From assembly GCF_964204645.1 (NCBI RefSeq), contig NC_134032.1, positions 4,550,175-4,614,174 on the forward strand: a stretch of DNA of 64,000 nucleotides, in the 5' to 3' direction. This stretch comes from Tubulanus polymorphus (Eukaryota > Animalia > Nemertea). Both the position numbers and the translations under genes were made by a program. The notes beneath the pieces are model-generated. The model was not told the DNA's origin. It worked only from the letters and a program-made list of their open reading frames with translations, and did no database searches. This document shows positions 1 through 61,760 of this stretch, one piece after another (position 1 is the first letter of the stretch; every line of letters begins with the position of its first letter).

Positions 1-133
1 GTTCAAGGGGGCAGGGGGCCTGCGCGCCATAGGGGGGGCGAGGCCGAGGGGAAAGCAAAGCGGGCACAAAAAAAAACACACGCACACTCTCTGAAGAAAA
101 GGAGAGAGAGGCAGGGCACAGGGGCGCCTTGGC

Positions 134-931
134 TTAGACGCAGCAGCAACGGCAGCGCTCGATGCATTTGTCGAGGGCGCTCCTGGCATTTAAGATAGAA
201 GTCTCGCCTTCGTAGGCGCCCATCAGTTCATTGCAAATGTCGGACCAGGCCACTGCGCAGACCTGAATGGGATTTAGATCGCATGCGCGCATTTTGGCGA
301 TCTCTTGGTCCGGCAAGCCGAGCAGGTGGGCGCGCACTGCCCTAATGGCGGTGTCCCAATAGTCTAGCTCCATAGAGACCTGCTTAGTCTCTTCGATGGT
401 CGAAGGGTCAGCCTCTGCTAATGTGCGCTTGATTCTGCGGGTGGCAATGATGGTGTCCATGATGCCGCGATGGGGCCCTTCGCAGCTGGGGGTCAGGTCA
501 TCGTCATCGCTGTTGTGGCACTCATAGTAGGTGGGGTCCCCTCTTATCAGCTCTTTTGAGCGGGTGCCCATCAGGTCGAATTCTGATGATGATATGTGCC
601 TAAGGGCGCAGAGGGCTTGCATTTTTTTTGTGGTGTCATTCCTTGGGTCTTCATAGGCTTGCATGTAGAACTTGATGTATGTAAAGGCAATCAGAGCGCG
701 GCCCAAGAGCTCTGCCCACATTCCTTCTAGGGGCAAATGCCTCCTGTCGTCTAGGTCGTCGAGGCATTTTAGCATATTTTTCATATATTGATCTATGTTT
801 TGGTTGATCAGGGAGCCTATACCATGGGCGCTGCCACAGAGGTCAAAGAGGCCCACAAATACATGAATCGAGACCATGGATACCTTAATGGTCAGGTCAA
901 TCTCGCTTTCCCATTTGCTTGCGACATTCAT
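134..931 (-). CDS. hypothetical protein (left variable region)
   Basis: ORF of ~265 aa from ATG 931 with an AT-rich upstream region and a downstream poly(T); no motif recognised. Confidence 0.7.
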   Translation of the reverse strand: MNVASKWESEIDLTIKVSMVSIHVFVGLFDLCGSAHGIGSLINQNIDQYMKNMLKCLDDLDDRRHLPLEGMWAELLGRALIAFTYIKFYMQAYEDPRNDTTKKMQALCALRHISSSEFDLMGTRSKELIRGDPTYYECHNSDDDDLTPSCEGPHRGIMDTIIATRRIKRTLAEADPSTIEETKQVSMELDYWDTAIRAVRAHLLGLPDQEIAKMRACDLNPIQVCAVAWSDICNELMGAYEGETSILNARSALDKCIERCRCCCV

Positions 932-1040
932 CTTTATTGTAAAAGTCAATACCTAAAATAATCACTGATTTGCGCTTTCTTGCGGCCCTTGCGAAAAAAA
1001 AAGCTCAGGGGGCTGAGTGACTAGTGTACAAGGCAGTGGG

Positions 1041-1751
1041 CTATGGGCCGCCCCACCGGGCAGGGCTGGGGGCCAAAAGAAGCGGCGATGCAGGGGGCGG
1101 CCATAGGCGGCTGACATCTGTGGGCAGGTGCGCCTCTGCCGCAGGGGGTTCTCTATATCTGATTTGGGCGAGGGCAAAGTGTGGGGGCACTGAAAGGGCA
1201 TGTGGAGATGGGCACATGAATATAGAGGGGCCCTGCGCGGCAGAGGAGCGAGCGCTAAGGCAGAGAGAGTCGCATAAGGAGCTAGTATCGGCATCAGAGG
1301 CATTATCATATAGAATGCAAAAGCCCTTCCAAGGAGGGCCCTCGTCTTCGGTGCGCGGGTGCAGCCTTTCGCCCAAGAGGCGCGACATCTGCTTGAGGGC
1401 CGATCGAGAGCGCGAGAGGTAGATGGCATTTGTAATAATTAGCAAAATGTGCATATCTGGATTAAAGGTGCTGAGAAATAGTTTTAGGGGTGTTGCTTTC
1501 ATGTCGATGAGGCATACATATTCATCTTTTAGGCCAAAGAGCATGGATATATTGTCTATCTCTGGGCGGTGTAGGACAGGGTCTTGACCATGCAGCAGCA
1601 CATGGATATGCGCCCTGTCTTTGCCATCTTTGTAGTCGGTGGCGATTTCGTGCCAGCGCTGCCAATAGTGGGTGAGCTGCGGGAGCCAGCAAAAGAGGCG
1701 AAGGTCTGAGCTGGGCTTGTGGCTAAATGCAAAACCATGATCGAAAGGCAT
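1041..1751 (-). CDS. paralog family A protein
   Basis: Shares AHIHVLLH/AHVQAHTH and PWKGFCI/PWQGWCI with 4942..5475. Confidence 0.7.
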   Translation of the reverse strand: MPFDHGFAFSHKPSSDLRLFCWLPQLTHYWQRWHEIATDYKDGKDRAHIHVLLHGQDPVLHRPEIDNISMLFGLKDEYVCLIDMKATPLKLFLSTFNPDMHILLIITNAIYLSRSRSALKQMSRLLGERLHPRTEDEGPPWKGFCILYDNASDADTSSLCDSLCLSARSSAAQGPSIFMCPSPHALSVPPHFALAQIRYREPPAAEAHLPTDVSRLWPPPASPLLLAPSPARWGGP

Positions 1752-1892
1752 GTCGAAATAATAAGGACTTAACTTCTACAAAGGAGGTAAAATGTGCATT
1801 GCACTGCGCCCGGCTAGCCTTTTTTGTCAGGGCCCCCCCCCCTTTTCTTTTTTGGGGCGAAAAAAAAAACACAACAGTAAGGGGAGGGCCCC

Positions 1893-2174
1893 CTAAACGT
1901 CGTGGAAGCCTTCTAAGAAGTCGTCTATGCTCTTTAAGATCCTATGTGGATCGTCTGCGAAGATTTGGGGGGTGAGATGAGGATCGATCTGTTGGCGAAT
2001 GTACGTGCCGATTGGGCCATCTGAGAAGGGGTGCTCCTTTATCTGCGCGAAGGTGCGCTGAATCAGAAAGAAATATAAAGAGGCGGTTCGTGGCCAGTCA
2101 GGGTCTTGGAGGTGCTGCATGGAAAAGGAGTCCATGCATGCTAGGAGGTTCATATAGCCCTGATAGTGTGCCAT
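1893..2174 (-). CDS. small hypothetical protein
   Basis: 93-aa ORF with TAAATG start context, followed by poly(T). Confidence 0.55.
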   Translation of the reverse strand: MAHYQGYMNLLACMDSFSMQHLQDPDWPRTASLYFFLIQRTFAQIKEHPFSDGPIGTYIRQQIDPHLTPQIFADDPHRILKSIDDFLEGFHDV

Positions 2175-2195
2175 TTATTCATAGGAGATCAGGTC

Positions 2196-2885
2196 TTAAG
2201 CTATGGATACTTCCATTGTATTGCCATTGCCGAGTTGCACGCATTGGCAGTCGTGAAGTTGGACTCTTTGTATCTTGCCACCAAAATCTAAATCGACCTC
2301 GCCTGTGATTTTTTTCTTTGGTAGTGGAGAAGGGTCAAAAGGCTCTATAGTCTTAGAATCTGGGCAGGGAGCTTGTTTGTTGATGGGCTTTGGGTCGTTT
2401 GTGGCTGGCGCCCTTTGACCGAGTTTGCCCATCACTTGCTTCTGGAAGCACTGAAGGGGCTTTACATACTGAACCTTGCTGGGATGAGCACGGAAGGGGA
2501 GTTTGGTTTTTTGGATCTTCTGTGGGGGCTTTTCAGTGAAGTCATTGTCGGAGTCTGAAGAGCTGTCTACCGAAACGGCAGGCCCAAACGGGGGCGGGCT
2601 CCTGCTTATAGTTTCTTGTACGGGTATGGACAGAGGGGCTTCGTCTTTTCTCGGGGGCGGTTGGAGGGCTGGGATAGCGGTCTTTGAGCGTGGGGGGCTC
2701 TTCGACAGATTATTCAAGGGCATTGGGCGGCCTTGGTATCCAATGAAATTTATGTTATTGGTTTGCCTATTATCGGATAAGGGCGGCGCTCGGCCTTCGG
2801 CGCCCACGACTTTCACAAGAGGCAAGATATTCCATTTGGCAGCCATCGTCAAGATATACAATCTGGTTTCTATACAGAGATGCAT
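2196..2885 (-). CDS. RHIM-containing protein, putative necroptosis/innate signalling modulator
   Basis: Pro/Lys-rich disordered body; C-terminal VQLHDCQCVQLGNGNTMEV matches the RHIM consensus (I/V)Q(I/L/V)GxxNx(M/L). Confidence 0.75.
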   Translation of the reverse strand: MHLCIETRLYILTMAAKWNILPLVKVVGAEGRAPPLSDNRQTNNINFIGYQGRPMPLNNLSKSPPRSKTAIPALQPPPRKDEAPLSIPVQETISRSPPPFGPAVSVDSSSDSDNDFTEKPPQKIQKTKLPFRAHPSKVQYVKPLQCFQKQVMGKLGQRAPATNDPKPINKQAPCPDSKTIEPFDPSPLPKKKITGEVDLDFGGKIQRVQLHDCQCVQLGNGNTMEVSIA

Positions 2886-2967
2886 AAAAATTCAATCAAC
2901 GCCATCGATCGGTGTCCTCCCTAATCGATAAAAAAAAAGAAAGGGGATAGAAAATTCTTGTGTTGAT

Positions 2968-3693
2968 TTAGGCAGCGATGGCAGGACGGTGCGGAATTCG
3001 TAGCTCGTGCAAATACCTCAGCAGATCATTTATGATTTGCGCCTCTCTTAGCCACAGGACAGCCCTGTCTGTAGTGGCAAACCACATCCAGAAATCTTCA
3101 AATTTGTGATGGCATCCTTGCATCAGGCTCCACTCGCAGCCCTCTAGATCTGTGACCATTCCTTCCATGTCTCTGTATGGATACATCTGCTGATAGGTTT
3201 GGATCCATGCTGAGTAGGGCCTAATGTAATTTGGGATTTTGAAGACTTTTCGAGCTTTCATGAGTTTAATGGGCCACTTTCTCAGGGAGTTCTGCTTGAG
3301 GAGTCTTAGGCGCCGGGTAAATTCACTGCGCCTTAGGGGGTATCCAATCAGTCTCCAGCATCTGTATTGAATTGAGAGGTGTTCCCAATGCAATCCGGCG
3401 ATAAATACTGTCAGGAGGTCCTGATACGTTTTTTCTCGGGCCCCTCTTGGGTAGTAGGGATTTTGTAGGCGCCTAAAGTGTTTCTGGCACCATGTCTTTA
3501 TCTCAGACCCATCCGAGATTAATGAATGAAGTTTAATGCTCAGGTCTATTTCTTTTTCTATGCTGAGCGCTCTTAAGGGCATGCACTCGCAGAGGTCTTC
3601 TAATTTCTGTATGAAATTCTTTAGGATATTTGCTATGTCGGCATTATGAACTAAAGGCATTTGAAATTCCTTTAGAGATGTCTTTGCCTCCAT
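2968..3693 (-). CDS. paralog family B protein
   Basis: LQNPYYPR..YQDLLT..IPNYIRPYSAW..YP..WLREAQI aligns with 4066..4802. Confidence 0.75.
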   Translation of the reverse strand: MEAKTSLKEFQMPLVHNADIANILKNFIQKLEDLCECMPLRALSIEKEIDLSIKLHSLISDGSEIKTWCQKHFRRLQNPYYPRGAREKTYQDLLTVFIAGLHWEHLSIQYRCWRLIGYPLRRSEFTRRLRLLKQNSLRKWPIKLMKARKVFKIPNYIRPYSAWIQTYQQMYPYRDMEGMVTDLEGCEWSLMQGCHHKFEDFWMWFATTDRAVLWLREAQIINDLLRYLHELRIPHRPAIAA

Positions 3694-3925
3694 TTGGGCA
3701 GGGATCTTGCTTTTTGGCTATATTAAGCGTCGGCAGAGTGGGGTCAGTCTTCTTGCTTTTTAGGGGCCTTGCCGTCGGAGTCTGGCCATTGCCTTTTGAT
3801 AAGCGGTTTAAGAGCGCTGCGTGACCCTCTTGGCGGATGACGAGAAGGTTGTTATTCTGCACCTCGGCTGCAAAGGCTGGCGCGCGCCTCTCAGGATCTG
3901 AGATTGGGATATTCGCCCCAAACAT
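3644..3925 (-). CDS. short paralog of the RHIM protein, lacking the RHIM
   Basis: ERRAPA..NNNLL..LLNRLSK..KQDPCP versus EGRAPP..NNINF..PLNNLSK..KQAPCP. Confidence 0.55.
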   Translation of the reverse strand: MFGANIPISDPERRAPAFAAEVQNNNLLVIRQEGHAALLNRLSKGNGQTPTARPLKSKKTDPTLPTLNIAKKQDPCPNGGKDISKGISNAFSS

Positions 3926-4065
3926 AAATTCGATAAGATGCAAAGTACGTAAAATCTTTTTTACATGCAGGGGCTCTAAAACCTAAATAGGATCTTGATC
4001 TATGGCGCCTATTTGATGGTGTCTAAAAAAAAGAAGAAGAAGAAGAAAAGGCCCCTGCGCCCTCT

Positions 4066-4802
4066 TCATGCAGGCCCGATATAGTGAGTGGACAGGGAGA
4101 TCCTATGCAATTCTTTTAAGAGCTCATTTAGGATTTGAGCTTCTGCGAGCCATTGAATCGCATTGCCAGTATAGGGAAACTGCGTGGGAGCGTGATTACA
4201 CTGCCTTTTGCATTCTATCATTAGATTGTCCTCGCAGATTTCTTGCTCTAAAATTACCCATGTGAGTTCTTTGAAGGGGTAGATACTTTGATACTGCCGA
4301 AGCCATTCCTCGTGGGGCTCGGCGTATCGTGGAATGATTAAGGATTTTTCGCTTTTGCTCTCTTCGCTGGCGTCCATGGGTTGGGGGATCCAGTCCTTCT
4401 CGCAGGCTTCTTTCATCCCGTTCAGGGCCTCAGAGAAAATCTTGCGACGGAATCTGCAACCATATCTTTGCCAGCTGATGTAATGATAATACATGCGCCT
4501 CATGCGCGCTGCAATGGATAGTAGTGTCAGGAGCTCTTTATACACCTTTGCTCTGCGGTCCCTTGGATATGACGGAGATTGCAGCTCCTGAAAGGTACTT
4601 TTGATCCGTTCCAATACCTTAAATCCATATTGGATTAGCACATATATGTTTTTTTAGTACTCTCGTCAGTTTGCGGCGCCGTTGTCGGCAGGGTACTGCA
4701 GAGGGTTTCTGTTTTCTGGACGATGGTCTGGATCACAGTTGTTAGGGTGACATCAGGCATTAAAGGATCTGACTCGGCCTCTCGAAAGTGAGCTTCCTCC
4801 AT
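4066..4802 (-). pseudogene. paralog family B protein, frameshifted at an A7 run
   Basis: MEEAHFRE..VQKTETLC (from 4802) matches the paralog N-terminus in a different frame from 4066..4641; one extra A at 4649-4655 joins them. Confidence 0.65.
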
Positions 4803-4941
4803 CTGTATTCACGGCTGGCTTGCGCACCACTATTTTATATATACAAGGAGCCCTGCCTAAAAGATCAATCTAAAGCAAAGGGCGCAGGGAGGGGCAATAG
4901 GCGCAAAAAAATAAACAAAAGAACGCAAGAGGGAGTGGCGC

Positions 4942-5475
4942 CTAGCATGGCTCAAGGGGGTCAGGCTCTGTTTGCATTTCGCGGGCCGCTGCGCTACAAG
5001 ACTCTGGCAGGCATCCACAAATGGTTTTGTTGGCGCCCCTTCGCGTGATTTTATAATATTTAAAGCGCTCATGAAAGATCTTGGGCAAAATCCAGATAGC
5101 GGGGAAAATAGAAATGATGATGCACCATCCCTGCCAGGGCTGATTGACTATAGGGTGCGCAGAGGGGGGCAGTGTGTCGCTATAAGGGAGCGCTTGCAGC
5201 AAGGCATCAGCCACAGCATTGCTATAGATCGTCGACGCGTGCGCCTTTGAGACTTTAGTCATGAGCAGCACGTCATTCAGGAGCGGATGGAAGTCATTTG
5301 AATAAGGGTGGGTGTGGGCCTGCACATGCGCGATATCGCCAATGCTGTCTTTTAAGGCTGCGAGGGCCTCTTGCGTTTCGGAGATGGCCATATCGGGAAA
5401 AGAAGTCTGAATGTAAAGGTGCTCTTTAGAAGTGCGGGCGGTGTCCATCACAAGAGTATAGCAGGCTCTCTCCAT
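4942..5475 (-). CDS. paralog family A protein
   Basis: Similar to 1041..1751. Confidence 0.65.
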   Translation of the reverse strand: MERACYTLVMDTARTSKEHLYIQTSFPDMAISETQEALAALKDSIGDIAHVQAHTHPYSNDFHPLLNDVLLMTKVSKAHASTIYSNAVADALLQALPYSDTLPPSAHPIVNQPWQGWCIIISIFPAIWILPKIFHERFKYYKITRRGANKTICGCLPESCSAAAREMQTEPDPLEPC

Positions 5476-5664
5476 GATTGGGGCTAGTCCGGGCTCCTGC
5501 TATAATGCGAGGAAAATATAAAATAAGCGCTGGCAAGCGGCAGGCAGCGCAGATGTCTATGCTCTTTTTTTTTCGGGCGCCTAGGTTCAAGGCCCTCTCT
5601 AAAAAAAAAATCATGTGGCGAGAGGGCGCCTGCGAAATGCAAAGGATTGGAAAGAAGGCAGCGA

Positions 5665-6396
5665 CTAACAGGTTAGAAATGTTTTCTCAGGGGCGCCTGC
5701 AGGGGCCATGGCATCTTCTTTTGGGGCGTTGGGGGAACTAGATGCGACCCACTGCTCTAGGCGGAGATTGGTGGCAGTGTGGTCGTCCAGGGCCTGCTGA
5801 TCTTTTTTCATGCGCGAAACGAGTTCTTCATACGCTGAGTCAGTCTGTGATGGGGCCAGACTCTCAGAGCTAGGATAGAAATTGCCTAGTGTAAATTTGC
5901 GGGGCATTTCGGGATGCTTTAAGACGCACACATTATCGTATAAGCCGGGATAGCGCTCTTGTAGTTGAAGGCAGATGTTGGAAATGATAGTGGCCTGCCC
6001 GCGATTGTAAACTTGGCCGATCTCTGTCACCTCCAAGGGCACTTCCAATTCTTCGATAACGGGCAGAACGCTATGAGAAAATTGGTCAGCAGCGATATAG
6101 TCCTCGAGCTCGGACACGTAGCCTCTCAGATCTTGGGTGGCTAGAGTCATGACTCTCTTGGGATGAGTGACCATGATATCTGTCAGCAGGACTATCTTTT
6201 GGGCGGTTTTATTCATTTGGGTGCGGACGGCCAGCGAGTGGCGGGCGAGCTCTCTATGGATGGACTCGCATTCATTTTTGCTATTGGTGTTGGTTAGGAT
6301 GTTGTGTTTGATCTGAAGAATTAATCCTATGATATCTGCGCGGATGCGCTCGGGGGCGTCCATACCGGTCTCAAGAAAATTGGAGGGGCTAAGCAT
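5665..6396 (-). CDS. hypothetical protein
   Basis: Long helical ORF flanked by poly(T) tracts. Confidence 0.65.
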   Translation of the reverse strand: MLSPSNFLETGMDAPERIRADIIGLILQIKHNILTNTNSKNECESIHRELARHSLAVRTQMNKTAQKIVLLTDIMVTHPKRVMTLATQDLRGYVSELEDYIAADQFSHSVLPVIEELEVPLEVTEIGQVYNRGQATIISNICLQLQERYPGLYDNVCVLKHPEMPRKFTLGNFYPSSESLAPSQTDSAYEELVSRMKKDQQALDDHTATNLRLEQWVASSSPNAPKEDAMAPAGAPEKTFLTC

Positions 6397-6469
6397 CGGG
6401 CGTTTGTGAAATAATCTACATGGCAAAGAAACTAAAAAAAAATATTAATAAAATGGCGCGCTAGCCTGC

Positions 6470-6829
6470 TTAATGTGTGTGGACCCAGACCTTGATGATA
6501 GTGAGCCAGACCCGGGCCGTATTTACGAGGTCTTTGCATTCCTGCTTATGTTCTTTGTCCGAGAGCGCATCTGAAAGCTCAGGGGCAGGGGGCTCGCTCA
6601 ACTTCACATAGGCAGTGCCTATCTTCAAAATCTCTGATAAAAAGCCTTGGTACTCTGGGGGCGTCTCCTCATAAATACCTCGGCAGATGTCTATTAAATC
6701 TGGGGGCAGCGGCGAAGACTTGACCACTGCCTTTAGCAATGTGCGGAAGGGCTCCAGTTTTTCTTTGCTCTCCTCGGCCGTCATTGTCCCCTCTAACATA
6801 ATAAAAAAAGGTAAGCGCGCGATCCGCAC
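6470..6829 (-). CDS. hypothetical protein (start uncertain, probably 6799 or 6784)
   Basis: ORF in the co-oriented array. Confidence 0.55.
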   Translation of the reverse strand: MRIARLPFFIMLEGTMTAEESKEKLEPFRTLLKAVVKSSPLPPDLIDICRGIYEETPPEYQGFLSEILKIGTAYVKLSEPPAPELSDALSDKEHKQECKDLVNTARVWLTIIKVWVHTH

Positions 6830-6948
6830 GCAAATCAGGGTGACTAGTATCGATGACTCAGCGTATTATACAGGGCCCCTGCTTATAAAGAGCAGGCCCA
6901 AAAGCCTCTTTGTCATCGTTGAGAGCGACCAAAAAGAGTCTTAATGCG

Positions 6949-7497
6949 CTAAATAGAGCGGGTCTCGCGCGTATAGTCGGGGGAGGGTTCTAAGGGCGGT
7001 TCTGCGCAATAGGGGCAGTAGCATTCGTCGTCGCCCCATTCCAACTCGCATTCGGCAAAGCTAAGGGTCTCTTCGGCCTGGCGGTGGAAATCAGAGAGGG
7101 AGCGCACGATGTTCAATAGGGGCATGGTGGTGCAAGCCTGAATTAGCATGTTGTACATAATGGTTAGCTGAATAGAGTGGATACTGCTGGCTAGTTGAAG
7201 GAAGCCCGACTCAGACGGCAGCTGCTTGGCAAATGCGATGTCGGGCGAGGTACAATAGTAAAACGCGGGTATAACATCATCCCAACGATAGTAAGAATGC
7301 TCAGGAAACAGCAAAGTGGTCTCATGGGATGGCTGAAAAAGGGGGTACCCGTCAGGCATTATGACATCCAGGACTTCTTCGGACATTTGGGAGCGATAGA
7401 TACAGCATGAGATGGCAGCTTCTGTGGCAAGCATCACACGGCGCATAGCTTCCCTGAAGTCATAGCGCGTCTGCAGATTTTTGTGCGATTGGTCCAT
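6949..7497 (-). CDS. hypothetical protein with C-terminal CxCxxC
   Basis: ORF containing ECYCPYC. Confidence 0.6.
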   Translation of the reverse strand: MDQSHKNLQTRYDFREAMRRVMLATEAAISCCIYRSQMSEEVLDVIMPDGYPLFQPSHETTLLFPEHSYYRWDDVIPAFYYCTSPDIAFAKQLPSESGFLQLASSIHSIQLTIMYNMLIQACTTMPLLNIVRSLSDFHRQAEETLSFAECELEWGDDECYCPYCAEPPLEPSPDYTRETRSI

Positions 7498-7700
7498 GAT
7501 CAAGAGAGGAGGTGCCTGAAATATTATGAGAGGCGCTAATTAACCCATAGTAAGGGCATTTGCTAAAAATCAAAATAATTTTTATAAAAGGGGCAATCGG
7601 CGCCCAAAGGCTCATGTCCTAGGGACTGCCTAAGGCCATGATTCAGTGGAGGGCATGGTGCCATCTTACAAAAAAAAAAATAAGCAGCGCTTTTTTATAT

Positions 7701-8369
7701 TTAGACAGATTCAGGGATGATGTGGAAATATGCATAGTTGCGGCGGCGCAAGACGAGCTCGGCCTTCTTGCGGATCACTTGAAGATGTTTTTGAATGAGC
7801 AGAAAATGGGCTTGAAAGTGTTCATGAGTCAGGGGGTTTTGTACAGAGATGTCCATCCAAGCTTTCATCAGTGTAATCCAATGATCCGACAGGCTCCCGA
7901 GGCCGAGATCGATTAGTAATGGCATGATCTGCTGAGTGAGATTCAAAGAAGATCGTAAGTGCCCCATCATAGGATTATAAGAGATGGCGTCTGCTTCTAA
8001 TATGACCTTTCCTTCTAATTGCGCGAGGGCTAAGCGCATCAGATGAAAAGGATGTGGAGCATCCAGGCATGCGTGGCATTGGTTTTGGATTGTGTCCACA
8101 AGTAAGTTCAGGTAGTCATGCGTTGGGCCGCCGTAGGACGCAGCGCTGCGAAAAATTGCCTTTTCTGGATCCATGAGTAAAATGGAAGGGTCATGCGGCG
8201 GGCAAAACTCAATGTGGGCCATTGCCTCTCCTATTTCTAGATCGACTATTAGATCAGGCACCATAGAAGGCAAGTCACTCACAATGGCGGCGCAGTCCAT
8301 AGGGCCGAGATTTGCCAAATCGCCAAGCATGTGGGCTGCCAGATACGGCCGTAATTCTGATTGAGACAT
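7701..8369 (-). CDS. hypothetical protein
   Basis: ORF from AAAATG (MSQSEL), with poly(T) downstream. Confidence 0.65.
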   Translation of the reverse strand: MSQSELRPYLAAHMLGDLANLGPMDCAAIVSDLPSMVPDLIVDLEIGEAMAHIEFCPPHDPSILLMDPEKAIFRSAASYGGPTHDYLNLLVDTIQNQCHACLDAPHPFHLMRLALAQLEGKVILEADAISYNPMMGHLRSSLNLTQQIMPLLIDLGLGSLSDHWITLMKAWMDISVQNPLTHEHFQAHFLLIQKHLQVIRKKAELVLRRRNYAYFHIIPESV

Positions 8370-8727
8370 TTTTAGTTCTCTAACAGCACGACACCACTGC
8401 AAGGGATTCTTAAGATTTGCATGAAACGCACTCAAAAGGAGGAGGCAAGGGCAGGGCCGAAAACGAGGTCAAAAGCCCCCTGCCCCTTTTGGTTGCTTTT
8501 TTTTTAGAACTGTTCTCGGCGCAGGGATGGGATAATAGCCGCGATGTCTTGTCTTTTGGGGCTAACCGCTGCCTAGGCGTTAGATCGGCCTTGGTGAAAT
8601 GTGTGCGCGCGCACGCGTAAAAAAAAATACATTTGGCAAAAAACCCTAATACTCTTCTTTGTATAATCTTTGCGAATAGGCAGGCGCAAAATGGAGGGGG
8701 GGGCACTGTGCGCTCGAGAGGACTTCT

Positions 8728-9180
8728 TTAGCAATTGGCTTGGGCCATGTCGTCGTAAAAACGCACAATATGGTCCATTCCGGGCGTGATAATCAGGTGG
8801 CGAGGTGGGTTTTTCATGGCAATGACCTTTGGAAGTTGGTGCAGCGAGAACAGAATTTGGGGCAGGCATTGGCGCACCATCTGGTGAGTACCTTCGTGGC
8901 CGATCATTTGGGGTATGGCTTTAAAGAGGCTGTGGAAATCCTGATAAAGATCGCCGCTCCAGCTCTGATCTAGGGTCGGGGCAGTGAGCAAAGTGCTCAA
9001 AGGCTCTAAGATGCGCGGGTATTCGTGCTCGATAAGATATGACATGAAGAGGCAGTCTCCGACTAACATTGGTGGCCTATCAGACATGACAAGCATCCGC
9101 GAAACATAGTTGCCCCACCTTTGTACGGCCGAGGCCATGGTATATTCAAGGTGGTCCAGCTCTTTGGTCGCGTCGTCCAT
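8728..9180 (-). CDS. hypothetical protein
   Basis: 150-aa ORF in the co-oriented array. Confidence 0.6.
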   Translation of the reverse strand: MDDATKELDHLEYTMASAVQRWGNYVSRMLVMSDRPPMLVGDCLFMSYLIEHEYPRILEPLSTLLTAPTLDQSWSGDLYQDFHSLFKAIPQMIGHEGTHQMVRQCLPQILFSLHQLPKVIAMKNPPRHLIITPGMDHIVRFYDDMAQANC

Positions 9181-9258
9181 AGTGGGTCAGTAAGTCAATA
9201 CTATAAAGGGCGGCGATAAAAAAAAAGAATCGTGTAGGGCAGGCAGGTGGGCAGTGCG

Positions 9259-10110
9259 CTATTGCGCCCGCTCCTGCTCTAAAGTGGCCATAGAAAGGCT
9301 ATCAGTTGGATAGGCCTGATAGATGAAGGCGCTGACGTTTTTTTCGATTCGCGCAGTCAATCCTGGGATTAAAGGGTGCAAGTGGCCTAGGCGCATGGCT
9401 GCGTGGACCTCGCGCACGTCGCGCATGATGGGCCCTTGTCGGATCGTGTAAGATAGTTTGTTGGCAGTGCGCATTATGAGATAGAGAAGGAAAATCAGGG
9501 AGCCTTCCTGCTCTTGGATCCAGTCTGTGAAGGAAGTGGGGCAGCTCCAGGCGGCATAGATGTTAAAAGTGGAGGAAGCAAAACATTTACGGCAGTTGGT
9601 CTCGATTGCGTATTTCCAGGCGGCTATGAGGTACCTCAGGCGCATTATATGGTACGAGATATGGACCGTATAAAATCGAGCTAGCTGCAGATGGTAAAGA
9701 GGAGACAGTTCCATCCTTTCCTCAGTGGACCCGGCGACAGAACTATACGCTAGCCGATAAAACTTGCAGAGCTCGTCGTTCAGCTTTGTAATGAGGCGCT
9801 CTATATCTAGATCGGATTGAGGATTTTGGCGCATTTGGCGAAAGTGGATAAAGGCCTGGCGGATTTGGGCGCTCTGCTCAAGGAGGTGGGGTTTGCCGCC
9901 TGCTTCTTTGTTTAAGAGGCGCAGGAGGATTTTCTCGTGGTCTATGGCAATGGCGTTTAGGGTCTGGGGAGTTGGGAGCGCGCCCTGGGCCTCGATGGGG
10001 AGGACCCACTTGGCATGGTCTTTGTCGTAGAACACGCAGTGCAGGTCATTGAGGAGCATGTTCCATGTGGATAAATTTGCACAGATCTGAGTCCAGATGC
10101 CATTCATCAT
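9259..10110 (-). CDS. hypothetical protein
   Basis: Long helical ORF, first ATG at 10110. Confidence 0.65.
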   Translation of the reverse strand: MMNGIWTQICANLSTWNMLLNDLHCVFYDKDHAKWVLPIEAQGALPTPQTLNAIAIDHEKILLRLLNKEAGGKPHLLEQSAQIRQAFIHFRQMRQNPQSDLDIERLITKLNDELCKFYRLAYSSVAGSTEERMELSPLYHLQLARFYTVHISYHIMRLRYLIAAWKYAIETNCRKCFASSTFNIYAAWSCPTSFTDWIQEQEGSLIFLLYLIMRTANKLSYTIRQGPIMRDVREVHAAMRLGHLHPLIPGLTARIEKNVSAFIYQAYPTDSLSMATLEQERAQ

Positions 10111-10184
10111 GCGTGGGTGGCTGACTATTATTCTCAAATTCTGTTCTCGCTTGGGGCCCAAATCTCAATCGATGAAAAAAAAAA

Positions 10185-10703
10185 TTAGTCGGCCGCCGAG
10201 GGAAACAAAATGCGCGGCGTGATAGGGGGCAGGTCGCCTTTGAGGTACTCTGGTTTTCTTTTTTTCGGCGCGCCTTGGCAGGCAGAGCGCCTTACAGTCT
10301 GGAGTGCTTCTAAATGCCGCCTCCAAATTTCCAAGTTGACTACAAGTCGATGAATTGCAGCCTTAATACTTGGACATTTGGGGGTCTTTACTCTTGACTT
10401 GAAAGCTTCTTCTAGCAGGGAAAAGGCAGAGAGGATTAAAGGGGTGTAAGGATCAGAGTGAGACGGTGGTAGAGTAGCCTTGTAGCATGCGATTTTATCC
10501 ATGAGGTCATTAATCGCGACAAGCCGGGCGTATACGCATTGCGCTTCGACGTTTAGGTTGGTGTCAAACATGGCGCTGCGAATGACCTCCTCGATATGTT
10601 CAGTGCGCGGCAGTAGAGCGTTTATGGAGTGCAGGAGCGTCTGCGCCATGCGGGCGACTTTGTACATGTCAGCAATAGACGGGGGAGTGCGTAAATTAGG
10701 CAT
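10185..10703 (-). CDS. hypothetical protein with NLS-like PKKRK
   Basis: 172-aa ORF; the stop runs directly into poly(T). Confidence 0.65.
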   Translation of the reverse strand: MPNLRTPPSIADMYKVARMAQTLLHSINALLPRTEHIEEVIRSAMFDTNLNVEAQCVYARLVAINDLMDKIACYKATLPPSHSDPYTPLILSAFSLLEEAFKSRVKTPKCPSIKAAIHRLVVNLEIWRRHLEALQTVRRSACQGAPKKRKPEYLKGDLPPITPRILFPSAAD

Positions 10704-10769
10704 GTCTAGTTTTCATATCGGGTCATTATAAAAAAATGACTAAAAGGGAGTGCTGCGCGGCCTGCGCCT

Positions 10770-11756
10770 TTATATGACAGAGAATGTATTGCAGCTGATT
10801 TTAATGCAAAATATGAACTCATAAGAATACTTGAATGAAGGCGTGGCTTTTCGTTTTGCGCTCGAGGGCGTCATTTTGCTGGGCAGGGTTTGTACAACCA
10901 AGATGTTGCCCTGCGCATCATATGAGTGTGTGAGGAAAGAATCATTAATGCTGTCAGGAATCACCGACCGCAATAAAATGCCTAGGTATTTGGCGTCTAT
11001 TTGTATTTTCATTTTGGGTTTGCTGGGTCCTTGAGGGTGTAAGATGTCTCCTGCGAAGAAATCTTTGTCGTCGCCTATGATGGCCAGGTACTTATCATAA
11101 TAGATCACCCGCACTGTGCCCTTTTTGGGGCGCTTGTTCCTGTGAATGTTAATGGGCTCAGAGCCGTGCTTCAGGCGCAAAACAAAGGGGGGAAGGGGCG
11201 AGGGCACTTGCTGAAAGGGGAGCTGCGCCCAGGCAGTGATCTTGTTGATGATGCTGGTCGGGACTGTGACGCAGCTGATGCCCTGGGAGTGCGAGATCTC
11301 GCTGCTGCCTTGGACCAGCGCGCCAGGGAGGCCAGTTTCAGACTCTGCCCACAAAAATTGGCCTAGATTGCCGGGGTAGTATTTTGTTGTATTTTTGAGG
11401 TGGATCATGGGGATTGACTTCGTATTTGTGCCTTTATTAAAGGTGCGCCTTATGACGCCTTGGCCGGTGCCGTCATTGATGTCGAGCATGACTTCTGTGA
11501 GGTCGGGCTGAGGGGCAGATACACAGCCCTTGTCTGAATAGGTATAATGATTCAGATCGGGATGGAAGTGCGTGTTTTCGCGGTGGCTGGTCATGTAAAG
11601 TTGCCAGCCCACTGGGTGTACTCCAGGGCCTGACTCTGCAAAGCCAGTGAGCAGCACTGACTTGTCAGATATGTGTAAGAAATGCACCAAAGGGCATAAT
11701 TTCATCTGGTTAGGGGCCTCGATTAGGACTCGAAACTCCTTTTCATATGTTTGCAT
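10770..11756 (-). CDS. possible PCNA-like sliding clamp/processivity factor
   Basis: Beta-rich 328 aa; the C-terminal IQIDAKYL..ILVVQT..YEFIFCIK pattern resembles the clamp C-terminus; weak. Confidence 0.3.
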   Translation of the reverse strand: MQTYEKEFRVLIEAPNQMKLCPLVHFLHISDKSVLLTGFAESGPGVHPVGWQLYMTSHRENTHFHPDLNHYTYSDKGCVSAPQPDLTEVMLDINDGTGQGVIRRTFNKGTNTKSIPMIHLKNTTKYYPGNLGQFLWAESETGLPGALVQGSSEISHSQGISCVTVPTSIINKITAWAQLPFQQVPSPLPPFVLRLKHGSEPINIHRNKRPKKGTVRVIYYDKYLAIIGDDKDFFAGDILHPQGPSKPKMKIQIDAKYLGILLRSVIPDSINDSFLTHSYDAQGNILVVQTLPSKMTPSSAKRKATPSFKYSYEFIFCIKISCNTFSVI

Positions 11757-11872
11757 CTCAAACTGATACCAGCAATAAAGAAATGATAAACTGAATTATT
11801 GAGGGCGCCGGATGGGCCATAATATGATTAATAATTTATAGATTTTCTTGCTTACATACATTAGACAGAAAC

Positions 11873-12118
11873 ATGCCAAAACACCCGTCATCCAAAACTA
11901 AACCAGAAATGGCGTCACACCCGACAACCACAGAGATTAGTCTAATAAATCAGGGACTTTCGGCCACCCAAGAGACTGAGCCCACTGACTCGCACACCGC
12001 TGCCGGTCAGACCAAGATGTATGAGCCCCCGATCGATTTTACCTACCCAAACAAGCAGGACTTGTTCGCGGACTGGCAAAATGACTTTCTGGACATAGAC
12101 ACTAGATCTCAAATCTAA
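11873..12118 (+). CDS. small acidic hypothetical protein
   Basis: 81-aa ORF after an AT-rich promoter-like stretch. Confidence 0.45.
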   Translation: MPKHPSSKTKPEMASHPTTTEISLINQGLSATQETEPTDSHTAAGQTKMYEPPIDFTYPNKQDLFADWQNDFLDIDTRSQI

Positions 12119-12406
12119 CTCGCACAGTTTCAGCTATGATATTTAAGTCCTTTATGACATTTATCCAAGTATCGTATATCCATGCCGCACTTATGCAAAG
12201 AGAGTATATTTAACAAGATAGTTATCTATAAACGTGAGATTAGTCATTGTATGTTGCGCATAATTAGCATTGTTTCTCGAGGCGACCCCTTGTCTGTAAT
12301 ATCTTTCACATATCATTGCTCTGAATCTCTAAGGTGAGTCTAGCTAGTCATGAGACAGTCCTCCTCCTTCCTTTTATCTTTTTTTTTTGTTTCTCTTCTT
12401 TTTGGT

Positions 12407-12555
12407 GGTCAGGCCCCTGCGTTGATCAGGACCCTGCGTTGATCAGGACCCTGCGTTGATCAGGACCCTGCGTTGATCAGGACCCTGCGTTGATCAGGAC
12501 CCTGCGTTGATCAGGACCCTGCGTTGATCAGGACCCTGCGTTGGTCAGGCCCCTG
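12407..12555. repeat. 17-bp tandem repeat (GATCAGGACCCTGCGTT), 7 perfect copies plus 2 variant flanks
   Basis: Units start at 12424, 12441, 12458, 12475, 12492, 12509 and 12526; GGTCAGGCCCCTG variants at 12407 and 12543. Confidence 0.97.
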
Positions 12556-12613
12556 ATCTCGAGGGTGCTTGAATAAAAAAAAAATATGGGATGAAAGGGT
12601 GCGAAAATCGAAT

Positions 12614-13909
12614 TTACAGCAAATAATTGGGCGAGGGAGATTCATGAAATGAGTTGATGTCTCCTCCGCCTCTCGCTCGGAGCTGCATAATGAGGGGATT
12701 TGTAGAGAGATTACTAGGCTTTGCATGGCTCAGGGCCTCAAGCTGCTCTGGATGATGGAGCCCATACATGATTCGCTCGTAACCTTCTTCGTCGCTTTGG
12801 GCCCTTTCTACGCAAAATTCTACAGCGCGGCTCGAATGGGTATATGATTGCAGGACTGAGTCGCAGAGCATAGGCACATAGATGGGTGCGAGGAACTCTA
12901 TGTACAGTTCTTTCACGATGCGAATCGCCTCTAGGGCCTCTTTGTCTCCGCCGAGCGCGGCGCACCACTCATAGATGCCCTGCACAAATTTGTTGGTGCC
13001 GGCATGCAAGGTTTCGTCGCGCAGGATTTCAGTATTGCCCTTGATGAGCGCCGAGAGCCCTACATAAGCTGGGGAATTGTCCTCTTGGGGCAGGGGCATG
13101 GCATGGATGTCGCGCACCAGATCTTCGAGCGATCCGATTTTAAGAGTGGGCAGGCGCTCCATGACATACTGGTATTGGTTGACGGGGTATAGATAGTCGC
13201 CCATTTGAAATATCATCGCGATCATGAATGGGATGAAGAGGTGCTCGATCGCCTCGGCAAACGCTAGATTTAAATATTTGTGCGGAATGCTGCCTACGCC
13301 GAATTGCTCAGTGATTTGAGCGGCGTGGCTGACTAGGGTGCGGTATGCCGCCTGGCGCGCCGGCAGCATCGTGTGCGCGCAGGCCTTATAGTCGTAGTTG
13401 GGATCAAAGCCCAAGAGCGGCCGCACCAGATCGCGAAAGGCACTAAGGCGCTGATCGCTGTCTTTTTTCCAGCGCAGGGAGATTTGTAGATTCTCTGCAT
13501 CGCTTTCCTTAGTGGGGTCTAGGCGCAGTGCTGCCAAATTAATATAGTAGAGGCTGTACGTGCGCTTGTGGACATTTTCATTGGCCATCTTGTGCGCCAC
13601 AAAGTCGCTGTAATTCTGACCTAAATAGCTGCAGCCAAAGAGCTCTTCTGTGTTTTCGGCCACGATAAAGTCCATCATGATCAGGCTGTACATAAGATCC
13701 ATGAGGGCCTGCGGGGCCTTGCGGTGGGCCAAGATGAGCTGTATCAGGACATTGCCCTTTGGATACGTAATCGTATTGGGGGCCCAAGAGGTGTTGCAGA
13801 TGCGCAAATAGAGCCTGTGGGTTATTTTTTTTATTTCGTCGGCCGAGGTTAGGCCCTGAAAGAGCTCCCCAATTAACTGATCTGTGTTAGTAATCTGATC
13901 GGCCGCCAT
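12614..13909 (-). CDS. ribonucleotide reductase small (R2/beta) subunit, divergent
   Basis: Diiron ligands and radical Tyr: MDFIVAEN, ENVHKRTYS, AIEHLF, RDETLH. Confidence 0.85.
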   Translation of the reverse strand: MAADQITNTDQLIGELFQGLTSADEIKKITHRLYLRICNTSWAPNTITYPKGNVLIQLILAHRKAPQALMDLMYSLIMMDFIVAENTEELFGCSYLGQNYSDFVAHKMANENVHKRTYSLYYINLAALRLDPTKESDAENLQISLRWKKDSDQRLSAFRDLVRPLLGFDPNYDYKACAHTMLPARQAAYRTLVSHAAQITEQFGVGSIPHKYLNLAFAEAIEHLFIPFMIAMIFQMGDYLYPVNQYQYVMERLPTLKIGSLEDLVRDIHAMPLPQEDNSPAYVGLSALIKGNTEILRDETLHAGTNKFVQGIYEWCAALGGDKEALEAIRIVKELYIEFLAPIYVPMLCDSVLQSYTHSSRAVEFCVERAQSDEEGYERIMYGLHHPEQLEALSHAKPSNLSTNPLIMQLRARGGGDINSFHESPSPNYLL

Positions 13910-14816: not shown

Positions 14817-14910
14817 TATGATTTTTTTTTTAGAAATCGGCACAAAAATAGCTTGTCTATGTTCTTCTCTTTAAATAGTGCCAATCATTTGCAAAAACCG
14901 CAGCATCGAC

Positions 14911-17250: not shown

Positions 17251-17285
17251 TCCTTAAAAAAATAAAGAGATATTAAACAATGCCA

Positions 17286-20630: not shown

Positions 20631-20635
20631 ACCAC

Positions 20636-57599: not shown

Positions 57600-60500
57600 A
57601 TGACTCATTATCCGCACAAAATTCATTACATCAGCATGGGCCCTTCCACTGATTTTTCGCGCCTCTGCACTGCGAAGGTGCCCATCAATTCGCCTGTCGA
57701 GAATTTTTATTCGGTAAAAAATAATCAGGGGGTGTCTTCGCCCTTTATGGGCATTTCTAGCGGCGTCTCTAAATGCCTAACATGCCTTCAGAGCAATTAC
57801 AAACAGTGCCAAGGCCACATAGGCGTGGTCATCAACTCCCTGACATATATCAATCCTATTCTTTCGGATGCACTGACCACTTTGTCTACTCTGTCTTGCG
57901 GCAATTGCGGCCACATTGGGGCCTCAGTGACAAAAAAGGCCCAGCATCTAAAGAGCCGCTCCATCCATGAGATCACCTTGGCGCTCAAACTGATGAAAGC
58001 CACTACCTCGGCGCGCCAGCCCAAGACCTGCGAGAATTGTTTTATGCCCATGGTCCTGTATAAGCGGCGCCCCAATTGGCCGAGCTTGACGCAGACAGTC
58101 AAGGGCATCACTGGAGATATGATGTCGAGTGATTTGGATGCCCTGCGAAAAAAGCTCCAAAGCAACAAAAATTGGGAAAAGCTCTTTGGCCAGGATTCTT
58201 ATCAGCACTTGCTGGCCAGCATCTTTTCCAATATGATATTGATGGTGCCACCCTCAGATCTGCACACATACAAAAACATGAGCACCTCCATTCCGCAAAC
58301 ATGCATGTTAAAGGTGAATTACATTGCCCTGATCCGATTAAATAACCAATTTATGTCACCTACGCCCAATGACAAGGCCGCGATCCAGGACGAGCAAAGG
58401 ACACTAAATAAGCACTTCTACGATGTCTTGTCCATGATCTTTTCAAATAAGCAAGACCCCCCTCAGCGCGGCATGCAACACAAAAAGATAGGGCCGCAGC
58501 ACCTCTTAGACATTGGACAAAAAGATGGGCCCCTGCGCAAAAGCATGCTGGCCACGACCTCTGGCGCCTCAGGCCGCGAAGTAGCGTGCGCCAACTCTAA
58601 ACTCGGCTATAATGAAATTTCCATTTCGCAGTATGTCGCCAAATTAGTAAAGCGCGAATGCCATGTCAACCATGTAAACATCAATGCGATGAGGGCCCTC
58701 GACCGCACAAATGTGGATGGGTACCCGCGCCTGCACAAGATCTTCAGGCATGGCGTGTGGTATGATCGATCGCACCCTGACTTTGCCACCATAGACTTGG
58801 CTGTGGGCGACAAGATTCAGCGCGATACGATGAATGGAGACAACGTCACCGCATGGCGCCCGCCTACCCTCTTGCTCAGCAGCCACAACAATGCCAGCGT
58901 GGTCGTCCTGGACAACCCTGATAGCAAATCGGCAGGCGCAGAAGTCAATCCCACAACTATGTGCAATGCCCTGGTTGGCGACTTTGATGGCGATGCAATT
59001 TTCATTTGCTATGGGGCGCCCAGCACCGTGCACGGCGATGTCAAGATCCTGCTCGGCATGGACACGCGCTTACGAAACATTAAGAACTGCGACTTTGTGT
59101 TTTGCATCACTAACAATGCCATCACAGGATCGCTCCTCTGCACCTTAGACCCGCAGCCAATTAGCCCCGAGGCTATGCGCACCATCCTCGCCGACTTTTC
59201 CCTCGGGCCCGATGATCAGGCGCACTATTATCAGAAGTTCCTGACTACGCCGGGCACCACTGCGGATGCCATCTGCCTGTTTTTGCCAGAGAATTTGGAT
59301 TACGAGGGCAAGTGCCGCTTCGACGTCCCATGCGACTTTGTCGAGAACCCACTTCCTGACAAAATTGTGATCAAAAATGGTAGATATGTCAGCGGCGCCA
59401 TAACGCCCAGCATCATCGGCAAGGGCTCCACTAACACGATCTGGGATGTGCTGTATGCGTCGCATTCGTCAGGAGAGTGCATGAAGATTATTCACCGCTT
59501 TAGCCGCATGGCCGAGTGCGCCCTTTCCTACATTGGCTACACGAATGATTTTTGGTCAGTGGGGCCCAACAAAGAAATCGCCCAATCGGTGCGCCTAGAA
59601 GAAAGGGTCCTGCTTAAGAAATCGTCAAACCGCTGCAAAATCTTAGAAACCATTCAGTTCATGGATGAAGACACAGTGATGATCCCCTTTGTGAGCGAGG
59701 CCATGGCAGAGCTGACACCCGAAAAACACAAAGACATCATTTTGAATACTTATCCAGGCGGCACCAAGAACATGTCTCTCATGCTGATTGGCAGCGAGAA
59801 ACCCAAGTTTCCCCTTGTGGCGCAGGCCTGCGGCAATGGTGGGATGCTGTTTTTAAATGATAATCTCACGCGCATCCCTCGCAATCCGCGCCTCAATCCC
59901 TTTTCTAAAGACAACAGCACCGACATTCGCGACTATGGCTACATGCACCACACCTTTGCGAAGTCCATGCCGCTCAAGCAGATAGTTCTCCAATCAGCCG
60001 AGGCGCGCTTTGCCCTCATCGAGCGAAAGGTCGGAACGCAGGCGCCGGGCACCATCTCGCGCTATAAAAAAATAAACATGAGCCCCATTTGCAATCTGCC
60101 GTCGGGAATAATCATTGACACGCCCATTGACTCCCATCCGCGCATTATGAGCACCTGCTATGGCATGTCCGGAGGGCGCCCCGAGCTCATTCAGCTAATC
60201 AGCATCGATGACATCCTGCAGCGCCCGCCCGATCTGGTCGTGGGCCTGCTGCAAAGTAATGCGCCGGGCTCTGCGCAAGTGAGCGCGTATTTGATTCGGA
60301 TGTATGAAGAGTTCTTTGAGCACTGCTGCACCCAATTTAATCGCATGCACGACATGCCCTCAGAGACTAAGTATGGGCGCAATTTCGAGGTGCTGCTCAA
60401 CTTCTGGAATATTAAGTGGGACTTTGGCAAACTGCAGCCGCCGGGGCAGACCTCAGTAGACATTTATATGGGTTTCCTCCATGCACTGGCCTACATGCCC

Positions 60501-61760
60501 TTTGGCCTCGAGGCGCTCAAGGATGGCATGCCCCTGCCCCCTTACAGAAAAAATGCAATTGCCCCACTCTTTGTGTGCTTTTTGTCAGCGCTTCCGCTCG
60601 CAGTGGCCGAATGCGTAGAGCCCACCATTTTGAGCAGGCGCCTGAATGAGCTGTATGACCGCATCGCAGAGCGCCTTATTGCAGATTATTCTATGGTGGG
60701 GATGCTCAGCGCCTGCGCCCTCACCGAAGAAATGACACAGAATTCGCTCAATGCGCCCTCCACGAATAAGGGCGCCAAAGAAGAAATCGAGTACTTTAAG
60801 CGCATTATCGATACTGGTTTCCCTGCCGATAAATACGATACTGCCTTTTGTGAAATGGAGCAGATGGAGCAGAGCTATGCCGTCTATGTGTATACCACGC
60901 TAGGCCATTTAAATCCGCAGATCACTGTCTACATGGCGCTGCCTGAAGAGATTTTGGCCAATGACATCGTAGAAGAATTTGACAATATGATTTATGTTGT
61001 GTGCGACGTGCTGATTTCTACTATTCGCTCTTATGGGCTGTCGCCCATGCGATTTTTGCAATTGCTGCTCCTTAATAACAACAAGCGCATTGTCTTTATT
61101 GGCAGCGGCACACACAGTCTGCGCCTGCTGATTTACATTCCCTCAAACATTCCTTCCCGCAAAGAGATCGATAGTGGGCAGGCGCCCCTGGTCTACACCA
61201 TGATGCATCAATATATAGAAAAGGCCATCCAGAGCATCCACGTCTTTGGCGTCGAAGGGATTGCTAAAATTGAGCTCATCAGCTTCGAGCGGCTGAAGAT
61301 CGTAGACAATCAGATCGTGCGCCAAAAGGTCAAGGGGCTCAAGGTGCATAATAATGGGCTCAAGGCCCTGCTCTGCATCAAAAACATCGATATCTTTAAG
61401 GTCATCTATGAAAACCCCTCGGTTCATGAGCAGTACTTTGGCAAGATCAGCGCCATGAATACATTTGTGCACAATGCGCGCAATTTCTTTAAAGGGCAGA
61501 TCACTGCGCATGTATTTACGATTAGCGACTACTCATTCCGCAATGCCAAGTTTGTGCCGACCAATGAGTGGTTCGTGCAGAGCAACTTCCCAGAGCGCTT
61601 CCTCCAAAATGCGGCATTGTCGCGCCCCCAGCAAAAGATCATGTCTTCGGTCTTAAATGGCAATCGCGCCTATGTAGATGACCCCATTAGCTGCATGATA
61701 TTGGGCAGCAACATCCCATATGGGAGCTCTGCATACTGCATCGCCGACTATTTCTCATAA
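57600..61760 (+). CDS. rpb1: DNA-directed RNA polymerase largest subunit
   Basis: CLTC..CQGHIG clamp zinc site, RPPTL, GDFDGD, bridge helix GTQAPG, EEMTQNSLN, GSNIPYGS. Confidence 0.93.
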   Translation: MTHYPHKIHYISMGPSTDFSRLCTAKVPINSPVENFYSVKNNQGVSSPFMGISSGVSKCLTCLQSNYKQCQGHIGVVINSLTYINPILSDALTTLSTLSCGNCGHIGASVTKKAQHLKSRSIHEITLALKLMKATTSARQPKTCENCFMPMVLYKRRPNWPSLTQTVKGITGDMMSSDLDALRKKLQSNKNWEKLFGQDSYQHLLASIFSNMILMVPPSDLHTYKNMSTSIPQTCMLKVNYIALIRLNNQFMSPTPNDKAAIQDEQRTLNKHFYDVLSMIFSNKQDPPQRGMQHKKIGPQHLLDIGQKDGPLRKSMLATTSGASGREVACANSKLGYNEISISQYVAKLVKRECHVNHVNINAMRALDRTNVDGYPRLHKIFRHGVWYDRSHPDFATIDLAVGDKIQRDTMNGDNVTAWRPPTLLLSSHNNASVVVLDNPDSKSAGAEVNPTTMCNALVGDFDGDAIFICYGAPSTVHGDVKILLGMDTRLRNIKNCDFVFCITNNAITGSLLCTLDPQPISPEAMRTILADFSLGPDDQAHYYQKFLTTPGTTADAICLFLPENLDYEGKCRFDVPCDFVENPLPDKIVIKNGRYVSGAITPSIIGKGSTNTIWDVLYASHSSGECMKIIHRFSRMAECALSYIGYTNDFWSVGPNKEIAQSVRLEERVLLKKSSNRCKILETIQFMDEDTVMIPFVSEAMAELTPEKHKDIILNTYPGGTKNMSLMLIGSEKPKFPLVAQACGNGGMLFLNDNLTRIPRNPRLNPFSKDNSTDIRDYGYMHHTFAKSMPLKQIVLQSAEARFALIERKVGTQAPGTISRYKKINMSPICNLPSGIIIDTPIDSHPRIMSTCYGMSGGRPELIQLISIDDILQRPPDLVVGLLQSNAPGSAQVSAYLIRMYEEFFEHCCTQFNRMHDMPSETKYGRNFEVLLNFWNIKWDFGKLQPPGQTSVDIYMGFLHALAYMPFGLEALKDGMPLPPYRKNAIAPLFVCFLSALPLAVAECVEPTILSRRLNELYDRIAERLIADYSMVGMLSACALTEEMTQNSLNAPSTNKGAKEEIEYFKRIIDTGFPADKYDTAFCEMEQMEQSYAVYVYTTLGHLNPQITVYMALPEEILANDIVEEFDNMIYVVCDVLISTIRSYGLSPMRFLQLLLLNNNKRIVFIGSGTHSLRLLIYIPSNIPSRKEIDSGQAPLVYTMMHQYIEKAIQSIHVFGVEGIAKIELISFERLKIVDNQIVRQKVKGLKVHNNGLKALLCIKNIDIFKVIYENPSVHEQYFGKISAMNTFVHNARNFFKGQITAHVFTISDYSFRNAKFVPTNEWFVQSNFPERFLQNAALSRPQQKIMSSVLNGNRAYVDDPISCMILGSNIPYGSSAYCIADYFS

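Follow-up and report, generated by a model that had tools for sequence, protein, structure and literature searches.

Does a small gene of a viral genome encode a stand-alone RHIM aimed at host death signalling, and what host would such a protein imply? The question is raised by gene B, which lies on the minus strand of the window (the whole stretch of DNA analysed here, 64,000 nucleotides). The original prediction read its product as a stand-alone RHIM decoy acting against necroptosis or Imd-like signalling, in an asfarvirus-like virus of an animal.

Viral setting of the locus

57600..61760, plus strand: RNA polymerase largest subunit (RPB1), with a Pfam Rpb1 match; the marker for the asfarvirus-like placement

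RPB1 is very divergent and retains the catalytic DFDGD; the residues preceding this motif differ from the usual ones. Its best match among solved structures is the ASFV enzyme 8q3b, at 75 bits and E 2e-20; Pol III scores 57 bits. The genome is likely that of a very divergent asfarvirus-like nucleocytovirus, as first proposed, a placement drawn mainly from RPB1 and not from a tree. An early-transcription-factor-type helicase is split over overlapping frames at 44087–44938 and 44823–47117 (window 44087–47117). It matches a VETFS chain with an E-value of 3.8e-4. A nuclease of the YqaJ type, together with weak matches to capping and Rpb6 families, agrees with a nucleocytovirus. Three other window genes returned nothing informative from the PDB, and sequence searches with RPB1, gene A or the YqaJ nuclease found no relatives. 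Runs of at least seven T lie within 100 nt after 37 of the 59 ORFs, and the window contains 77 of them altogether. Coding-strand poly-T terminators are an ASFV trait and are not specific to Asfuvirales.

Several further features of the window were recorded. A 273-aa protein (26709–27530) has a Met-Gly start and a C-terminal hydrophobic stretch. By eye it is similar to two myristoylated entry proteins, E248R of ASFV and L1 of vaccinia virus; a PDB search gave this likeness no support. A cluster of six ORFs (14911–19752), each with one hydrophobic stretch by eye and some with coiled coils, is likely to encode membrane proteins, for which no family was found. Tandem repeats occur at 12409–12555, 19929–20207, 20634–20734, 22848–23513 and 48476–48764. 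The arrays outside the main ORFs have units of 17 nt (8.6 copies), 25 nt (11.2 copies) and 22 nt (4.6 copies), and coding repeats lie within a 941-aa protein and a Gln/Met/Pro-rich 595-aa protein.

Four sequencing runs from one study (X1–X4) contain the sequence. None of the data sets listed with it is of RNA, which has no bearing on expression. A single contig of X1, a possible source sample, covers positions 1–5198 with no differences from the window. Runs X2–X4 have no cover over the RHIM-coding part of gene B, which proves nothing. Between 15952 and 19200, the window and the X1 contig differ by seven letters and two one-base gaps, several of them common to X2–X4, so that either the window does not come from X1 alone or small errors are present. 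At 19.9–20.6 kb, the X2 and X3 contigs omit 136 or 232 nt.

Gene B and its predicted product

2196..2885, minus strand: gene B, RHIM protein; 229 aa if read from the first ATG or, more probably, 216 aa with Met14 (2846) as the start
2214..2264, minus strand: RHIM, residues 208–224; Pfam PF12721 on residues 210–224, and shuffles
2286..2318, minus strand: additional predicted beta-strand, residues 190–200, N-terminal to the RHIM; forms a hairpin with 205–217 in the monomer model
2610..2624, minus strand: PVQET, residues 88–92, a candidate TRAF1/2/3/5-binding site; sequence match and shuffles
2670..2798, minus strand: Asn-rich N-terminal segment, residues 30–72 of B; 40% identity in the paralogue B' (pairwise E 1e-5)

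The frame of gene B is coding-like. It scores +0.18 bits per codon, compared with 0.26 ± 0.07 for 57 other ORFs of the window and −0.27 ± 0.15 for off-frames; the five other frames of gene B are all negative. Synonymous bias taken alone is weak (0.013 against 0.107). Initiation at Met14 (nt 2846), giving 216 aa, appears likelier than at the first ATG, because this position is roughly aligned with the start of B'.

The protein body is rich in Pro, Lys and Ser. In a single-sequence AlphaFold2 model (mean pLDDT 48), secondary structure is absent before about residue 190, and a beta-hairpin is formed by residues 190–200 and 205–217 at a pLDDT of about 75. The RHIM is thus predicted to sit within a disordered region; low pLDDT from a lone sequence is weak evidence for disorder, and the Pro-rich composition agrees with it. 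The strand at 190–200 could extend a cross-beta core. No folded domain, membrane anchor or oligomerising domain is predicted, and Pfam, PDB sequences and the model gave no ribonucleotide-reductase-like or capsid triplex domain. The product is predicted to be soluble. The stand-alone architecture originally proposed is borne out by this model. The C-terminal VQLG behind a disordered body was likewise recovered: reading frame, coordinates, codon use and the composition of the body all agree.

Homologues of gene B were sought widely. Among proteins of similar length, 80 candidates gave none at E ≤ 1e-3; among longer proteins, with the last 40 aa as query, one candidate gave none at E ≤ 10. Viral and metagenome contigs held no homologue, the ESM Atlas returned a blank result and PDB sequences gave nothing relevant. 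A search of 1.84 billion representatives yielded a lone match, to a 1916-aa repeat protein at residues 7–51, which was judged spurious. The only homologue found is the paralogue B' within the window.

The C-terminal RHIM

The RHIM core of RIPK3 is VQVG. In gene B the core tetrad is VQLG (residues 216–219, nt 2240–2229), preceded by an apolar strand, a trait of RHIMs, and followed by Asn-x-apolar. A tetrad of this kind is common: when the 59 window proteins were shuffled 3000 times, 67% of the sets contained one, and another lies in frame in ORF 49955–51304 of the window. The tetrad by itself is not significant, and the flanks carry the RHIM call. VQLG fits the consensus (V/I)Q(V/I/L/C)G given in PMC9444067. 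Asn-x-apolar on the C-terminal side of the core and unstructured flanks are described as RHIM features in PMC4262963. The tetrad is identical to that reported for TRIF, and upstream of it both proteins have apolar residues at −8 and −6, His at −5 and Gln at −2 (PMC9182532).

The RHIM profile, PF12721, divides on how much of the protein is searched. The last 35 residues score 23.4 bits (E 4.1e-5) and the last 25 residues 22.9 bits, above the curated cut-off of 20, whereas the whole protein scores 19.4–19.5 bits (E 7.7e-4, residues 210–224), just below it. Gene B is the sole RHIM match among 57 window ORFs scanned with Pfam (14 at E ≤ 1, 43 at E ≤ 0.05), and PF12721 did not match any of the three further tetrads present in the six frames. 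Matches of similar E-value to unrelated families occur in the window, for example HamA at E 2.9e-4, and are probably spurious, so that the RHIM E-value alone is not decisive. Among 14 control prokaryote genomes, PF12721 exceeded its cut-off in none, with weak matches in seven in a loose first-pass search. An extended pattern (apolar-x-apolar, five residues, tetrad, two residues, Asn-x-apolar) occurred in seven of 3000 proteome shuffles and in three of 200,000 shuffles of the gene B protein; it was chosen after the sequence had been viewed, in part on the basis of PMC4262963. Profile and shuffles together support an RHIM-type motif at the C-terminus of gene B.

Comparison of the tail with RHIM fibril chains in the PDB gave no match by phmmer or Foldseek, the query being short and the model of low confidence, and the model of the entire protein gave only noise in Foldseek. 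No fungal amyloid family in Pfam was matched by gene B at E up to 10. The Asn-rich N-terminal segment was considered as a second RHIM or a HET-s-type motif and rejected, with no Pfam match in B or B'.

A candidate TRAF-docking site

The disordered body contains PVQET, which the original prediction did not include. This pentapeptide is identical to the TRAF2/3 core of CD40, written out as PVQET in PMC6125299, and satisfies both Px(Q/E)E and PxQxT. It was noticed by eye. PxQET appears in 0.3% of 100,000 shuffles and in one of the 59 window proteins; the looser PxQxT appears in 9% of shuffles and in three of the 59. A TRAF6-type site is absent from the protein. As a sequence match of moderate weight, PVQET offers a lead towards the RHIM's own signalling network.

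Proposed mechanism

We consider it slightly better than an even chance that gene B encodes a stand-alone RHIM decoy or adaptor with an inhibitory role, probably in an animal host. TRAF2 brings in cIAP ubiquitin ligases, and TRIF, like the product envisaged here, also binds TRAFs. The proposed steps are as follows. (i) The C-terminal RHIM would be likely to co-assemble into cross-beta fibrils with host RIPK1, RIPK3, TRIF or ZBP1-type proteins. (ii) Such co-assembly would block host death and NF-kB signalling. (iii) A fibril seeded or capped by the gene B product would carry no signal, like those of the herpesvirus decoys, because no kinase, TIR or death domain is attached. (iv) More tentatively, PVQET would recruit TRAF2/3, and by way of TRAF2 the cIAP ligases, to the captured proteins, and would thereby change their ubiquitination or titrate TRAFs off receptors. 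The product would then amount to a minimal imitation of a TRIF-like adaptor, in which the strategy of M45 (RHIM capture) is combined with one resembling that of LMP1 (a TRAF site). Necroptosis is reported to restrict ASFV (PMC11215146).

A bolder version of this proposal is put forward tentatively, and we hold it to be rather less probable than its negation. It would make gene B a TRIF mimic without domains, one that glues host RHIM kinases to ubiquitin-ligase complexes of TRAFs. No RHIM protein would have been known before from a nucleocytovirus, nor any viral protein dedicated to the part of a RHIM adaptor. The virus would belong to an undescribed animal-infecting asfarvirus-like lineage, in which an amyloid decoy arose independently outside the herpesviruses.

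The same two motifs could also serve activation. Both would then be real, and the protein would nucleate RIPK1/TRAF complexes, leading to NF-kB-driven survival or inflammation, or to late lysis. LMP1 is reportedly, by the title of a cited paper, a decoy of CD40 for TRAF3, which would fit such a role. Promotion of survival by LMP1 through RIPK1 ubiquitination (PMC5833833) points the same way, as do the reported conservation of RHIM-dependent NF-kB activation across vertebrates and in a mollusc RIPK1 (PMC12119088) and the finding that isolated M45 RHIM peptides killed cells and gave no protection (PMC9444067). The established viral RHIMs are nonetheless described as inhibitors (PMC13506858), and gene B has no predicted membrane anchor or oligomerising domain. 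An activating role is judged unlikely.

A duplicated cassette

1893..2174, minus strand: 93-aa gene, 22 nt downstream of B; predicted four-helix bundle
2968..3660, minus strand: gene A, 230–241 aa, upstream partner of B; no family found; a poly-T run then follows
3644..3925, minus strand: gene B', 93 aa, paralogue of B; its end overlaps the start of A
4066..4808, minus strand: gene A', paralogue of A at 31–32% identity; two frames, with a break near 4645

Gene B belongs to a two-gene cassette that is tandemly duplicated across window positions 2196–4808 as A+B and A'+B', a duplication absent from the original prediction. The break in the frame of A' near 4645 has identical letters in run X1. 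B' aligns in order with about 100 residues at the N-terminus of B and has neither PVQET nor the RHIM; the segment conserved between the two, residues 30–72, matches no Pfam family. The simplest reading of the alignment is that B' was truncated by the duplication, a direction that two copies cannot fix. Since B' looks like a truncated duplicate, its missing tail says little.

The cassette bears on whether the tail is a RHIM at all. It could be an ordinary hairpin that binds some viral or host partner, with the conserved job of the protein residing in the N-terminal segment common to B', which is the only part that B' keeps. The hairpin of the monomer model could serve another binding mode, the whole-protein PF12721 score lies under the cut-off, and rare patterns turn up by chance when very many windows are scanned. 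Against such a coincidence, one 216-aa protein contains two motifs of immune signalling that are independent of each other and that both seldom arise in shuffles (3/200,000 and 0.3%); the tail alone passes the PF12721 cut-off, and the truncated appearance of B' leaves its shortened form with little weight. We regard coincidence as improbable, by a shade more so than activation.

The gene downstream of B was also modelled. Its single-sequence prediction is a four-helix bundle (pLDDT 80, pTM 0.69), and its best structural match has Z 8.5 and an rmsd of 2.5 over 88 aligned residues, with Foldseek E > 1. A by-eye resemblance to a death-effector domain was set aside: only generic four-helix bundles matched, and neither a death fold nor MLKL was among the matches listed. 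Poly-T is absent within 100 nt after B, and the 93-aa gene has a run; B and this neighbour may share a terminator, and may be co-transcribed, because no poly-T run lies between them.

More broadly, window positions 134–13909 hold about 17 co-oriented minus-strand genes, most with a poly-T run after them. No convincing Pfam match was obtained for the genes scanned in this block. ASFV keeps host-interaction genes in regions of co-oriented orphan genes with tandem duplication, and the block looks like a variable host-interaction region of this sort.

Clues to the host

The step from a RHIM to an animal host, as originally drawn, holds only in part. A RHIM alone is no proof, given that RHIM-like PP motifs are reported from fungi and bacteria, that those of fungi cross-seed with human RHIMs (PMC12881547) and that an asfarvirus-related element is described in a fungal genome (PMC10640383). 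Relatives of asfarviruses are also reported in amoebae and abalone (PMC10146109). Other evidence in the window leans towards an animal. In one contig of run X4 (depth 2.3), 26 of 30 A residues between 18107 and 18259 read as G on the plus strand, antisense to a gene at 18090–19157. Of the X4 sites changed within 7000–26900, 30 of 32 are A>G. The contig does not have the neighbour bias of ADAR (5' G at 11 of 26 changed and three of eight unchanged sites), it is a single contig, and the kind of run that X4 represents is not known. ADAR hyper-editing has been reported for mollusc herpesviruses (PMC6651903). The contig hints weakly at ADAR-type editing of dsRNA and hence at transcription in an animal cell. 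Together with the CD40-type PVQET, it tilts the balance towards an animal host.

As to the pathway, necroptosis or Imd-like signalling had been suggested; the tetrad fits the RIPK/TRIF type better, the Imd consensus differing slightly (PMC4262963). Alternatively, the decoy could be directed at a non-vertebrate system, either the RHIM or cRHIM proteins of invertebrates (Imd, PGRP and those of molluscs or lancelets) or fungal PP motifs, and PVQET would then be fortuitous. This reading would draw on the wide occurrence of RHIMs in invertebrates (PMC4262963), on the cross-seeding of human RHIMs by fungal motifs (PMC12881547) and on the abalone, amoebal and fungal records of asfarvirus relatives (PMC10146109, PMC10640383), yet it is the least likely of the alternatives, since Pfam matches nothing but RHIM, the tetrad has the canonical form found in TRIF, and the exact CD40-type site suits an animal with TRAF2/3.

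Comparison with known systems

In the main texts of the openly available articles searched, no report of a RHIM protein from a nucleocytovirus or asfarvirus turned up, in keeping with the original statement that none was known in asfarviruses. A 2026 review lists ICP6, ICP10, ORF20 and M45 as the known viral RHIM proteins (PMC13506858). For coronavirus Nsp13, a RHIM has been suggested on the basis of its sequence and structure (PMC9247175). Herpesvirus RHIM competitors have been contrasted with the Z-alpha competitors of poxviruses and ASFV (PMC13610683). The ASFV proteins I73R, A179L, A224L and I329L come from the same broad virus group as gene B and target the same pathways; their folds are Z-alpha, Bcl-2, IAP or others, and no ASFV RHIM protein is named in the available parts of these sources (PMC13610683, PMC11215146).

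Among cellular proteins, the Drosophila inhibitor Pirk/Rudra is the nearest analogue in layout, having a C-terminal RHIM-like motif with which it is described as disrupting amyloid signalling (PMC4262963, PMC13506858). It differs from gene B in being cellular, of the cryptic-RHIM type and built with internal 18-residue repeats, which were not seen in gene B. TRIF (TICAM1) has the same VQLG and a similar upstream flank, and its RHIM too is placed in disordered sequence close to the C-terminus (PMC9182532). Unlike TRIF, gene B has neither a TIR domain nor the N-terminal helical domain. No homology was detected outside the motif, so that capture from TRIF and convergence are not distinguishable.

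LMP1 is a membrane protein without a RHIM, whereas the gene B product is predicted to be soluble and carries both motifs. PVQET likens gene B to the CD40 tail, in which the same letters form the TRAF2/3 core (PMC6125299). EBV LMP1 offers a viral parallel, as a TRAF binder reported to suppress necroptosis through RIPK1/3 ubiquitination (PMC5833833); for gene B, TRAF binding is a prediction.

If the proposal is true, gene B is the strongest pointer to the host of an asfarvirus-like lineage that is deeply divergent and has no relatives in the searched collections. It would also provide a minimal natural system in which to study whether a RHIM on its own is inhibitory or activating, and what is contributed by a TRAF site tethered to it.

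The herpesvirus decoys remain the closest functional comparison. The RHIMs of M45, ICP6 and ICP10 are N-terminal. Like MCMV M45, HSV-1 ICP6, HSV-2 ICP10 and VZV ORF20, gene B carries a RHIM whose tetrad has the canonical form (V/I)Q(V/I/L/C)G and which lies in a segment without predicted structure; the herpesvirus RHIMs have been put forward as traps that lock host RHIM proteins into amyloid unable to signal (PMC13506858, PMC7375649). Where these ride on ribonucleotide-reductase-like or capsid triplex proteins, gene B has no predicted folded domain; the RHIM of VZV ORF20 is described as N-terminal, and that of gene B is C-terminal. The TRAF-type site and the nucleocytoviral genome set gene B further apart, and no sequence similarity to herpesvirus RHIM proteins was found. 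Gene B may work like the herpesvirus RHIM decoys, yet it falls outside their families. What would be new is a RHIM in another virus group with a different layout, namely stand-alone, C-terminal and paired with a TRAF-type site; if this is true, the amyloid-decoy strategy has evolved convergently outside the herpesviruses.
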